Positions 7,927-63,419 are shown, numbered from the stretch's first letter. The stretch is DNA of 64,000 bases from Methanothermococcus sp. Ax23 (GCF_049075655.1 NZ_CP157522.1:1536001-1600000), one strand, 5' to 3'. The notes: a model not told the origin generated them from the sequence alone. A program made the numbers and translations.

Positions 7927-8041
7927 TACTTACTAGCCAATATAATGTCCGCCTCTCATCCAATCTCGTAAGAGATTTTACAAAACTATGTTTTGTATAA
8001 CGACTGAAGTCGTTGGCTTTCCCGGCGGTTTATCGTAAATA

Positions 8042-25637: not shown

Positions 25638-26855
25638 ATGATTAATATTGGTTGTGATAATATGAATAATATGAATTGTAATGCAATAAAACATGATAAA
25701 TACGATAAACTCGTTTGGAATGAAAATAAGCACAAACTACCCTATCGTGCCCAATACTTGGATGAAAGTAGAATAGAAGATATATTTTATCTGTTTTTTA
25801 AATATCATGTGGAGGTTGTAAAACATGACTCCATTATAGACTCCATTATGAATAACAGGCATTACAAAAATATTAAGGTCATTACCAGTTTAGATGAGTC
25901 CTATTCAGTTATTGCCACATCTTACTTTTCTGAAAAATTCGATAAAAAAAAGAAAGAAGAAAAAGAAGATTATAGCGAAAACATGGTAAATGATATAAGC
26001 GATATTATGGAGGAGCTCGGTAGTTATATGGAGAATATCTCGTCATCAATAAATACCATCTGCGGCAAAGGTAATGGGGTAAAAAGCTATACAAATCCGA
26101 AGAAAAAAATGGAATTAGCAGAGGAGCTTTTAAAAAATAGGCAGTTAAATGAATTTATAGAAAAATTGGGGAAATTTAAAAGGATGGCATTGAGAAAGCA
26201 AAAAACAAAAATAAAACACTTCAATGGAGAGAAACACGATATAAAATATGGCAGTGATTTATCAAAATTGCTTATAACTGAGGTAAAAAACCTATCTGAT
26301 GAAGGTTTATATGTCGATTTTTTAAAAAGATTTTCAGAGCATAAATTGTTAAATTACGAGATTTTAAATCATGAAGATACCAAAGGAGATTTTATCGTAT
26401 GTTTGGATTTAAGCGGTTCTATGAGGGGAGCAAAAGAAATCTGGGCTAAGGCAATTGCATTATCCCTGTTGGAAATTCAGCTAAGGGATAAAAAAAGATT
26501 TATCTGTATATTATTTGATGATGATGTCCGAGAAATAAGAATATTTGATAAAAAACCATGTTCAGAGGATATTATTGAATTTGCTTCTATATTTTTTGGA
26601 GGAGGAACAAATTTCGAGAAGCCCCTTAAAAAGGCATTGGATTTCAATGGAGACATTGTATTTATAACTGATGGAGAGTGCGACATGCACTGGCAATTCC
26701 TTGAATATGTGGAAGAAGTTAAAAAAGGAAAAATCTTCACATTCTGTATAAACATAAGGCCTACTGTAAGTTTAAAAAAGATATCTGATAAAGTAATTAC
26801 AATTCATCAACTAACTTCAAGAGGAGCAGAAGAGTTATTTGATACTGTCATTTAG
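25638..26855 (+). CDS. ViaA-like VWA-domain protein
   Basis: MIDAS motif DLSGSM, GGGTNF, FITDG; usual partner of RavA-type ATPases. Confidence 0.88.
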   Translation: MINIGCDNMNNMNCNAIKHDKYDKLVWNENKHKLPYRAQYLDESRIEDIFYLFFKYHVEVVKHDSIIDSIMNNRHYKNIKVITSLDESYSVIATSYFSEKFDKKKKEEKEDYSENMVNDISDIMEELGSYMENISSSINTICGKGNGVKSYTNPKKKMELAEELLKNRQLNEFIEKLGKFKRMALRKQKTKIKHFNGEKHDIKYGSDLSKLLITEVKNLSDEGLYVDFLKRFSEHKLLNYEILNHEDTKGDFIVCLDLSGSMRGAKEIWAKAIALSLLEIQLRDKKRFICILFDDDVREIRIFDKKPCSEDIIEFASIFFGGGTNFEKPLKKALDFNGDIVFITDGECDMHWQFLEYVEEVKKGKIFTFCINIRPTVSLKKISDKVITIHQLTSRGAEELFDTVI

Positions 26856-51450: not shown

Positions 51451-51475
51451 AAAAACTCTCCCTTTTCAATTTCAC

Positions 51476-51948
51476 GATTCCTTTGGCAGGAAGCCAACGA
51501 TTAAACAAAATCACAAAGTGATTTTGTAGCTCTCCGCTTCGCTCCGACTCCGCAACGAAGTTGCGACCTAAAACCTTCGGTTTTAAGTTTTCCTCACTTT
51601 CGTTCGGAAATGCTATAAAAATCCGAAGGATTTTATTCAATTAGCCGTTGGAGGAATGCCGAAAAATTTATATGTTGTATAAACTATAAATTGTAATAAG
51701 CCCTAAGGCACGAAGCTCGGTAGAGTGGATACGGTTGGAAGGGCTTTATTGGTAAATAATACAGGGCTGTCCGTCAGCCAGCCTAATGTCCTCCGCCCTT
51801 ATTATTGAGGGAGTTGGATTAAATAAAATCCCTACGGGATTTTATAGCATCAAAATCTTTGATTTTGAAGTTAAAATTGCGGAGCAATTTTATACTCTCC
51901 GCTTCGCTACAAAGGGCAAGCCAACGACTTTAGTCGTTGGTAGCTGAC
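51476..51948 (+). mobile_element. Non-autonomous IS200/IS605-type miniature element (family 2, copy 1)
   Basis: Preceded by TTCAC; left end ggcaggaagccaacg...cgttggaggaatgcc; TATA at about 51667; right-end hairpin ccaacgac-ttta-gtcgttgg-tagctgac; homologous to 63093-63373. Confidence 0.8.
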
Positions 51949-51968
51949 CATAGCTATTTAACAATTCC
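51697..51968 (+). ncRNA. Putative TnpB omegaRNA-like transcript (scaffold plus flank-derived guide)
   Basis: Structured segment downstream of a TATA box, conserved in the second copy with compensatory changes, ending at the element right end; transcript ends are inferred. Confidence 0.5.
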
Positions 51969-51992
51969 TCGGTCTTTGAAATGAGAGCTCCG

Positions 51993-52303
51993 CCGTTTAA
52001 AACTGTTTAGTTTTTTGTGAGTATTTGTGAGTGTATGGGAGCATTTAGTTTTCGAAATGTTTATATAGTGTTTTCATGCATAGTTTATAGTGTCAATCTA
52101 ATCAACCCCAAGACTTTCCTAAACCTCTTTTAAACATGTTAAAACATCCAACAAATTGTCGAATTGATGGGTGGAGCCGGGGTCCCCACGACAGGGGAGG
52201 AGACCGATGACATGCTCCCAATGAACCCAGAGGGATATGAGGTTGATGACGCCCAAGTCCAATGTGAGCATTTACTCACCAACGCTTACATTGGACAGAC
52301 CCC
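51993..52303 (+). mobile_element. Non-autonomous IS607-type miniature element (311 bp, copy 1)
   Basis: CC dinucleotide at both ends, tttgtgag direct repeats near the left end, TTTATATA at about 52060, GC-rich structured 3' half; inverted near-identical copy at 62584-62894. Confidence 0.75.
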
Positions 52304-52467
52304 ATAAATATATCTACTAATGAGTATCCTTTATCATTAATTAATCTAACTATATATATATATTTATAATTCCTTTTTCTGTTAATTATAAAAAAATGTT
52401 TGAAAGACCCACACCCATTAAAACAAGGAGAAAATAAAAAACATAAATCTATTATTTCTATTTTTAA

Positions 52468-62440: not shown

Positions 62441-62583
62441 TTAATATTTTTATATTTTATTTTTTTTACAACTTCACCATACGGTAATTTCCTTCCGTTT
62501 AGGAACCTATATATAGGAAAAATAATGTAATTAATAAAATATTTTTAAAAAATTTTATTGGTGAATAAAATGGATGAAGTTTT

Positions 62584-62894
62584 GGGGTCTGTCCAATGTG
62601 AGCGTTGGTGAGTAAATGCCCACATTGGACTTGGGCGTCATCAACCTTATATCCCTCTGGGTTCATTGGGAGCATGTCATCGGTCTCCTCCCCTGTCGTG
62701 GGGACCCCAGCTCCACCCATCAATTCGACAATTTGTTGGATGTTTTAACATGTTTAAAAGAGGTTTAGGAAAGTCTTGGAGTTGATTAGATTGACACTAT
62801 AAACTATGCATGAAAATACTATATAAACATTTCGAAAACTAAATGCTCCCATACACTCACAAATACTCACAAAAAACTAAACAGTTTTAAACGG
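62584..62894 (-). mobile_element. Non-autonomous IS607-type miniature element (311 bp, copy 2)
   Basis: Reverse complement of 51993-52303 with a handful of substitutions; GG at both junctions. Confidence 0.8.
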
Positions 62895-63092
62895 CAAATG
62901 TGTATATTACAAAAGAGAATGGAGAAAAAGAGAAATTTGATTTTGAAATTGTAAAGGAATCCCTAAGAAACGCTGGAGCGGATGAATCCCTCGTAGATGA
63001 TGTAATAAAAAGAATTGAAAATAGAATTCATGATGAGCTCACCACAGCAGAATTAAAGATGATGATTATAATGGTATTAAGAAGAATAAATA

Positions 63093-63373
63093 GTCAGCTA
63101 CCAACGGATAAATCCGTTGGCTTGCCCTTCCAACTCCCTCAATAATAAGGGCGGAGGACATTAGGCTGGCTGACAGGTCAGCCCTGCATTATTTTAATAA
63201 TAAACCCTTTCTAACCGTACCCACTCTATTGAGTTTCGTGCCTTAGGGTATGATTAATACTATTACATCTATATTATATAAATTTTTTTGGCATTCCTCC
63301 CATCTCGTAAGAGATTTTACAAAACATTGTTTTGTATAACGATTGAAATCGTGGGCTTCCTGCCTAATAATTC
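63093..63373 (-). mobile_element. Non-autonomous IS200/IS605-type miniature element (family 2, copy 2)
   Basis: Minus strand: TTCAC target, left end, TATA, structured segment, ccaacgga-ttta-tccgttgg-tagctgac right end; no target duplication. Confidence 0.82.
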
Positions 63374-63419
63374 GTGAAGTAGCTCAGCAATATACTACAA
63401 ACCATTCATAAATCTTATT

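Follow-up and report, generated by a model that had tools for sequence, protein, structure and literature searches.

The window analysed here is a 64,000-nt stretch of the Methanothermococcus sp. Ax23 genome (C1:1536001-1600000; host genome G000), which is 1.67 Mb long in 2 contigs, with 32% G+C and a completeness of 98.9%. It contains two protein-less elements of the IS200/IS605 type: copy A, 473 nt long on the plus strand (51476..51948), and copy B, 281 nt long on the minus strand (63093..63373). Each begins directly 3' of a TTCAC target, or transposon-adjacent motif (TAM), read directly from the sequence at 51471..51475 (+) and 63374..63378 (-). The original prediction had placed both copies, their TTCAC motifs and their 3' flanks at these positions, and direct reading found all of them there. 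The ORFs near the copies, judged by eye from their translations, have what we take to be an archaeal, methanogen-like look, presumably including a 694-aa Lon-type protease, membrane hydrogenase subunits and a formate/nitrite-transporter-like protein. Among the 17 sequencing runs listed as holding the region, which are labelled as hydrothermal-vent metagenomes or metatranscriptomes, 4 are RNA metatranscriptomes.

Both copies share one arrangement. In copy A, a BRE/TATA-like box (gAAAAATTTATAT; 51661..51673, +) with a putative promoter function precedes a divergent spacer of 28 nt between TTTATA and the scaffold (51673..51700, +), in whose last few bases transcription is predicted to start. The spacer is followed by the 5' module of the scaffold (51701..51762, +), with a closing stem CCCU/AGGG, a hairpin CUC/GAG and a variable hairpin, and by a predicted omegaRNA core (51763..51948, +), with stem 1 and its pseudoknot strand, stem 2, stem 3, a terminal hairpin and the tail GCUGAC. 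The right-end hairpin gccaacGACtttaGTCgttgg and the tail tagctgac occupy 51920..51948 (+). In copy B, the box (AAAAAATTTATA) lies at 63277..63288 (-), and an uninterrupted scaffold of 156 nt (63093..63248, -) comprises the 5' module and a complete predicted omegaRNA core. As originally described, TTTATA (51667-51672 in A; 63282-63277 in B) is followed by exactly 28 nt and then by ccctaaggcacgaa, with ccctaagg at 51701 and 63248. Immediately beyond the right ends, the flanks at 51949..51968 (+) and 63073..63092 (-) would be the sources of the guides; the 16-mer of the former is unique in the genome, and the latter falls within the 3' end of an 81-aa ORF on the opposite strand.

There is no protein-coding gene between the ends. 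The ORFs of at least 40 aa in copy A are only 53 and 63 aa long; both overlap nested insertions that are absent from the other copies, and the longer one extends past the left end. The basic mini-element is either 241 nt (A-type) or 281 nt (B-type) long, and copy A is an A-type mini-element that has been invaded by a separate hairpin-rich repeat, with ~144 nt in the loop of its left-end hairpin (approximate limits 51500..51643, +, from comparison with the uninterrupted copies c165 and c591) and 94 nt (51819-51912) between stem 3 and the 3' strand of stem 2. Because of the 94-nt insertion, a MAFFT alignment of A and B matched the interiors but not the right ends; the insertion may also impair the binding of TnpB. 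The nested insertions are arrays of short modular hairpins with A4/T4-flanked stems and the motif CTCTCCGCTTCGCT, which occurs at 6 genomic places, and the same scaffold junction has been invaded in other lineages (the C1:1458065 region and the metagenome loci L068, L079 and L083). A further repeat of ~315 nt, found 44 nt past copy A (51992-52305, +) and ~325 nt from copy B (62455-62768, -), carries a TTTATATA box of its own and is GC-rich in its 3' half. It has ~10 more dispersed copies in the genome, with identities of 87-100% (most 96-100%), no evident gene and no match in Rfam at E <= 1, and it may be another non-coding mobile element or an RNA gene family.

A 25-nt stretch of the core occurs eight times in the host genome, in seven protein-less copies and one full-length element; the protein-less copies other than A and B lie at C1:77941 (+), 165392 (-), 591072 (-), 1266269 (-) and 1457766 (+; start of the left end). 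Copy-to-copy matches reach E 1e-145, and three copies are mutually 98-100% identical, so that part of the conservation reflects recency. With up to 3 mismatches allowed, the 25-nt core did not turn up in any of the class's 39 other genomes, so that its recurrence in the host greatly exceeds chance, and a DNA search of 40 relatives returned copies of the family from the host genome alone.

A tnpB with the same right end, as sought from the original prediction, is present in the single full-length element of the host genome (C1:372244-373553). Its left end is identical to that of copy B (79/79), its last 93 nt are 96% identical, and subterminal hairpins at both ends are common to it and the mini-elements; besides the left end, the two forms can be aligned over the last ~95 nt only. 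The tnpB frame (C1:372403-373485; 360 aa) looks intact, matches PF07282 and PF01385, and runs ~25 nt into the conserved core, which itself ends at the right end of the element (373553). Against solved TnpB and Cas12f chains, the best match is 9nzq (7e-30), and the relationship to the ISDra2 TnpB is only distant (8bf8; E 1.4e-12). What we take to be the three RuvC motif stretches and the zinc finger align to the solved chains; since the RuvC stretches are conserved relative to solved Cas12f, the cognate TnpB does not look nuclease-dead. In a protein search across the phylum, the nearest non-self TnpB is 35% identical, which leaves no close full-length relative for comparison.

The insertions are not accompanied by a target duplication, in agreement with the earlier reading: the flanks of copy A are contiguous in two sister species (G010 and G003), and those of copy B in one (G003). 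The copy A site reads ...caatttcat joined directly to cataatttt... in both sister species, with the element missing, and the copy B site reads ...acttcgc joined to tgtttattc..., with 281 nt missing; in the host, the insertion of copy B replaced the last 11 codons of the 81-aa ORF. The empty orthologous sites carry TTCGC (B site, L111 in G003), TTCAT (A site, L133 in G010) and CTCAT (A site, L134 in G003), and the would-be targets there differ at several bases, in too few cases to tell chance from escape.

Further, a search of metagenomes with a 21-nt core pattern yielded 30 stretches, consisting of 11 complete mini-elements, 1 mini-element cut at a contig end, 6 of the full-length type (1 complete) and 12 cut within the element. 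The flanks of the metagenome copies map to five places in the host genome that lack the element. At 523796/523797, both flanks lie on one contig (L080) and map to adjacent host bases; at 464285/464286, the 5' flank lies on L070 and the 3' flank on L065, L082 and L085; and the remaining three sites, 1562740/1562741 (window 26740/26741), 1298058 and 1524306, are each identified by one flank only. For example, window positions 26736-26741 are empty, with TTCAC followed directly by attctgtat..., and contig L059 has a mini-element at exactly this point. TTCAC precedes four of the five empty sites and ATCAC one; overall, (T/A)TCAC precedes 8/8 genomic copies and 5/5 empty sites. Insertion after (T/A)TCAC without duplication, at sites that are empty in relatives or in the host, implies that the family has recently been mobile in the population. 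In three contigs (L064, L070 and L077), a mini-element has the 5' flank of one site on its left and the 3' flank of a different site on its right, which may be due to recombination between dispersed copies or to misassembly. The Y1 transposase (PF01797) has no match in the host genome at E <= 1; it is found in 6/39 other genomes of the class, with intact 144-aa frames in 3. With no Y1 transposase in the host, empty sites would rarely arise there, and the guides would be without anything to cut.

The fold of the core, obtained by folding and by direct reading, consists in order of a hairpin GGCUG/CAGCC with GUCAGC in its loop, a stem UGUCC/GGGCA, a composite hairpin, the right-end hairpin with a UUUA loop, and the tail GUAGCUGAC; the full-length element has GGACA in place of the stem strand GGGCA. 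The last 6 nt of the mini-elements are complementary to the loop GUCAGC of stem 1, forming a pseudoknot. Counted from the right end, the UUUA loop occupies -20 to -17, and the 3' strand of stem 2 lies at about -36 to -31 (GGGCA at -35 to -31). The available text of Nakagawa et al. (2023, PMC10097598) describes the ISDra2 omegaRNA as a 116-nt scaffold with four stems and a pseudoknot, which forms between -5 to -3 and -103 to -105, the latter lying in the interval enclosed by the strands of stem 1; the UUUA tetraloop occupies -20 to -17, and -36 to -31 make up the 3' strand of stem 2. The core therefore resembles the ISDra2 omegaRNA, as far as it is described there, in its stems, in the pseudoknot between pre-guide nucleotides and the stem-1 loop, and in the positions of the tetraloop and stem 2; it differs in its length (~95 nt versus 116 nt) and in its TAM ((T/A)TCAC versus TTGAT). 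Judged by sequence and predicted fold, a complete TnpB omegaRNA core makes up the last ~95 nt. At the gathering score, Rfam reports one tRNA only in the window; at E <= 5, it returns only chance-level matches to unrelated families at four loci holding mini-elements and the full-length element, and none to HgcC. An RNAalifold consensus of the archaeal copies, which paired the 5' module with the core, was rejected, as UGUCC/GGRCA is the pairing favoured by the full-length element and by the bacterial copies.

The right-end hairpin contains the compensatory difference reported initially (ccaacGAC/GTCgttgg in A versus ccaacGGA/TCCgttgg in B), and its variants across the copies are GAC/GTC, GGA/TCC and GAT/ATC. 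The accompanying statement that other differences fall in loops is correct in part; several are single-sided G-U/A-U or C-G/U-G changes inside helices. When 15 distinct archaeal mini-element scaffolds are considered alone, 96.0% of the cells pair, and double-sided changes are found only in the right-end hairpin (2/48 pairs), a number that 426/500 shuffles reach; the count of doubly changed cells and the covariation score exceed 500/500 shuffles, and six more pairs vary on one side with pairing kept through G-U. A covariance model was built from the archaeal mini-elements, and 18 sequences were aligned (13 mini-elements, 2 full-length elements and 3 bacterial copies). Across the 3' half and the pseudoknot, 10/35 pairs change on both sides, compared to 3.1 +/- 0.9 in shuffles, so that the covariation originally looked for is present, in an alignment that is fitted to the model, contains few independent lineages and takes most of its signal from the 3 bacterial rows. 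Out of 500 shuffles, 0 reach 10 pairs, slid controls yield 0-2, and 97.8% of the cells pair. The doubly changed pairs are located in stem 1 (1), the pseudoknot (1), stem 2 (1), the composite hairpin (2) and the right-end hairpin (5), where the reading of the covariation is affected by the hairpin's second role as a DNA signal for TnpA. The pseudoknot covaries between GUCAGC:GCUGAC and GUCAAC:GUUGAC, with G-C changed to A-U in 3 sequences.

The bacterial copies originate from a scan of genome contigs with the 21-nt core, which found one more stretch, in a metagenome-assembled genome (MAG) labelled Trueperaceae; a penicillin-binding-type ORF adjoins one copy in it, which fits a bacterium. This MAG has three protein-less copies (L088, L090 and L091) with the same 3' architecture, and L088 follows TTCAC. 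Together with L122 from a related genome, these protein-less elements have the TTCAC target and the 21-nt core in common with the archaeal mini-elements, the core being exact in L088 and slightly varied in the others; these similarities hint that the guide-only form has spread across domains. No cognate tnpB was found in the MAG; the TnpBs present are only 27-30% identical, with different 3' ends. The covariance model matches 6/101 genomes around the bacterial MAG, and among 7 further bacterial loci, 5 overlap the 3' end of a TnpB-like ORF, 1 is a protein-less copy and 1 is unclear. In a plasmid collection, the one match is a 34-nt hairpin at the 3' end of a haloarchaeal 'transposase' gene.

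The host genome also has a second, larger IS605 family, which uses a TTAC target and has ~89% of the left end in common, with a different scaffold. It comprises 27 mini-elements (283-405 nt) and 10 full-length elements, besides 1 left end that lacks a right end. Its layout is the same: the mini-elements have a TATA-like AAA(A/C)ATAAATAT ~24 nt before a conserved structured segment, which joins the last ~110 nt of the full-length element. In the window, at ~7935-8034 (-), a left end of the TTAC family is followed by unrelated palindromic sequence, and not by a scaffold or a tnpB.

The initial identification is borne out: the elements are of the IS200/IS605 type and protein-less, and they possess a promoter-like box together with a scaffold of the omegaRNA type, which extends to the right end and stops there. 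The best explanation is that both copies are PATE-type (MITE-like) non-autonomous derivatives of a tnpB-only IS200/IS605 element (IS1341-type), and the sequence comparisons indicate that the family is very probably one of omegaRNA-bearing PATEs served by one TnpB. Each copy retains the left end, the BRE/TATA-like box, a compact predicted omegaRNA of ~155 nt (a ~60-nt 5' module and the ~95-nt core) and the right end; the distance of the box from the scaffold would put the transcription start a few bases upstream of the latter. Insertion would proceed as a single strand 3' of (T/A)TCAC, without duplication, by a Y1 TnpA acting in trans. Each copy would then be transcribed across its right end, and the one cognate TnpB (C1:372403-373485) would take up the RNA, in which ~16 nt of the adjoining flank would serve as the guide. 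The complex would cut alleles in which TTCAC is joined directly to the flank, that is, an empty or excised site, and recombination with a filled copy would restore or spread the mini-element. We consider such homing or retention in trans to be the likelier mechanism, with appreciable doubt; the lack of a Y1 match in the host and the 94-nt insertion in copy A count against it.

The pattern of conservation bears on whether the box and scaffold have a function. The 12-nt box (A/G)AAAAATTTATA is identical at 11-12/12 positions between lineages, the 5' module at 35-43/44 and the core at 57-64 of 62-65; in contrast, the spacer between different lineages is identical at 10-23/28 positions, rising to 28/28 for the near-identical pair B and L062. 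The spacer length is 28 nt in five lineages and 27 nt in one. An archaeal TATA box lies ~25-30 nt before the transcription start, and at this usual distance the start is expected 0-6 nt before CCCUAAGG. A conserved box and scaffold around a divergent spacer is the pattern to be expected if both a promoter and an RNA were under selection; recency and recombination are alternative causes. The elements could instead be inert, or MITEs that do nothing but transpose: recent products of internal deletion whose ends are still recognised by the transposase, with a box and scaffold that have no RNA function. The near-identity of three copies, the insertion polymorphism that indicates recent spread, and the limitation of archaeal double-sided covariation to the hairpin recognised by TnpA all agree with this explanation, and the retained promoter could be a by-product of a deletion beside the left end. 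However, between B and the A-type the spacer falls to 10/28 (36%) while the box stays at 11/12 (92%), the 5' module at 37/44 (84%) and the core at 62/64 (97%), at a fixed spacer length, and the ~95 nt of core that are kept extend far beyond the terminal hairpin. Moreover, bacterial protein-less copies have the same architecture with covarying helices and pseudoknot, and the single-sided changes keep pairing through G-U, which fits RNA over DNA. On this evidence, we regard inert elements as unlikely, though deserving serious consideration.

The origin of the 5' module enters the same comparison. It has no BLAST-level counterpart in the full-length element; the B-type module is colinear with the RuvC-II coding segment of a metagenome full-length copy (score 40.6 versus 26.6 +/- 3.7; 0/500 shuffles), and the A-type module gives no significant match to the tnpB coding sequence (27.9 versus 20.5 +/- 3.1, maximum 34.6). 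These alignments are suggestive of a derivation of the 5' module from tnpB coding sequence, and the colinearity of the B-type module with an internal coding segment fits a deletion relic, as inert elements would contain. The bacterial mini-elements have a similarly arranged 5' module, with a hairpin that covaries between CUC/GAG, CCC/GGG and CCCU/AGGG; MAFFT misaligned the bacterial 5' halves, and the modules were therefore compared by eye and by single folds only. By the precedent of ISDra2, whose 5' region (-231 to -117) is described as dispensable for cleavage in the text available (PMC10097598), the 5' module would lie outside the minimal core.

A structured RNA could also act without TnpB: it might read out into the neighbouring gene and have an antisense or regulatory effect there, or it might occupy the hairpin-binding site of the transposase as a decoy. 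Transcription of copy B would run antisense into the 3' part of the 81-aa ORF, and the accessible part of one study reports that a PATE-derived RNA of Halobacterium is expressed, that its overexpression altered growth, and that a role as a TnpA competitor was proposed (PMC4615843). But the conserved part corresponds to the complete TnpB-binding core, with the geometry of the solved omegaRNA, an intact cognate tnpB is present in the genome, and the flanks differ at every copy with no feature in common, making an action without TnpB improbable. The same source describes sotRNAs and HgcC (RF00062), small structured RNAs from the right ends of IS1341-type elements in archaea, including Methanococcales; the HgcC RNAs, which are small, GC-rich and found in Methanocaldococcus, have a tetraloop like that of the right ends, to whose hairpins the authors linked them (Gomes-Filho et al. 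2015, PMC4615843). The mini-elements resemble these RNAs, as described there, in their origin from IS1341-type right ends, and differ in that they have no HgcC match at E <= 5.

The guides of omegaRNA-bearing PATEs would be taken from the flanks, and the original prediction allowed that they might regulate targets elsewhere. This suggestion did not hold up in the host genome: for the 8 guides taken from the flanks, a scan of the 6,674 TCAC sites gave no adjacent match elsewhere with <3 mismatches in 16 nt, and each 16-nt flank is unique. The ISDra2 TnpB, in the portion of the study available, does not tolerate double mismatches in guide positions 1-12 (PMC10097598). With this intolerance and no near match, the own empty allele of each copy is the only foreseeable target per guide. 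For the cognate TnpB and the 8 guides, neither an inactivated RuvC nor a TAM-flanked genomic target, the two marks of a TldR-type system, was found. Thus, although one nuclease gene faces seven guide cassettes and added target sites have been raised in print (at least in the available text of PMC10691335), a host-domesticated repertoire of TnpB and dispersed guides that regulates or cleaves genomic or foreign targets in a TldR- or defence-like manner is very hard to reconcile with the absence of such matches, with RuvC stretches conserved relative to solved Cas12f, and with copies that are polymorphic between strains and absent from sister species, unlike a fixed host function.

A more far-reaching form of homing in trans is conceivable, at rather long odds: the mini-elements might be free-standing, guide-only drive cassettes, in which one nuclease is served by at least seven independently transcribed omegaRNA genes with their own BRE/TATA promoters, a 5' module that is possibly an accessory RNA domain, and spread by the cutting of empty alleles. 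If so, each omegaRNA would have its own promoter and would not be carved from tnpB mRNA; the 5' module, perhaps exapted from the RuvC-II coding segment, could be required for stability or for loading in trans; and the cassettes would spread in a recombining vent population without a resident transposase, through incoming or sister DNA.

The mini-elements can be compared with several described systems. Palindrome-associated transposable elements (PATEs) were originally defined in Haloquadratum (PMC3119063); according to the accessible text of Meers et al. (2023, PMC10055086), they 'often encode omegaRNAs', which depend on a TnpB supplied in trans. Like PATEs, the mini-elements consist of the ends of a tnpB element fused with the gene deleted, have no ORF and are dispersed after a fixed short motif. 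They differ in their precisely defined interior, with a BRE/TATA-like box at a fixed 28 nt, a 5' module and a full core, in their filled/empty polymorphism in natural sequence data, and in residing in a genome without a Y1 transposase. Standalone omegaRNAs, according to the part of PMC10691335 that summarises Altae-Tran et al. 2021, are mobilised, lack an effector or transposase, and occur in the same genome as effector loci; they are reported there to work in trans and to add target sites. The mini-elements are likewise mobilised and without effector or transposase, with an effector locus in the same genome; the differences are that they belong to a TnpB system in a methanogenic archaeon and that their function is putative. 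The standalone examples that Altae-Tran et al. tested in 2021 were reportedly of the IscB/IsrB type. Compared to ISDra2, the RNA of a mini-element would be transcribed from its own box, and not from within or after a tnpB reading frame.

Overall, the literature already contains both protein-less IS605 elements and standalone omegaRNAs that rely on TnpB in trans, as the available portions of these sources state, and a literature search on standalone omegaRNAs found no further paper; the mini-elements do not reveal a new mechanism. They represent a clean, well-bounded archaeal guide-RNA-only transposon, with exact ends, filled and empty alleles, a single partner nuclease and a ~155-nt scaffold behind a minimal promoter-like box, and they open the way to a direct test, in a methanogen, of the published proposal that standalone omegaRNAs act in trans. 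They could also supply a short natural omegaRNA expression cassette for archaeal TnpB tools.
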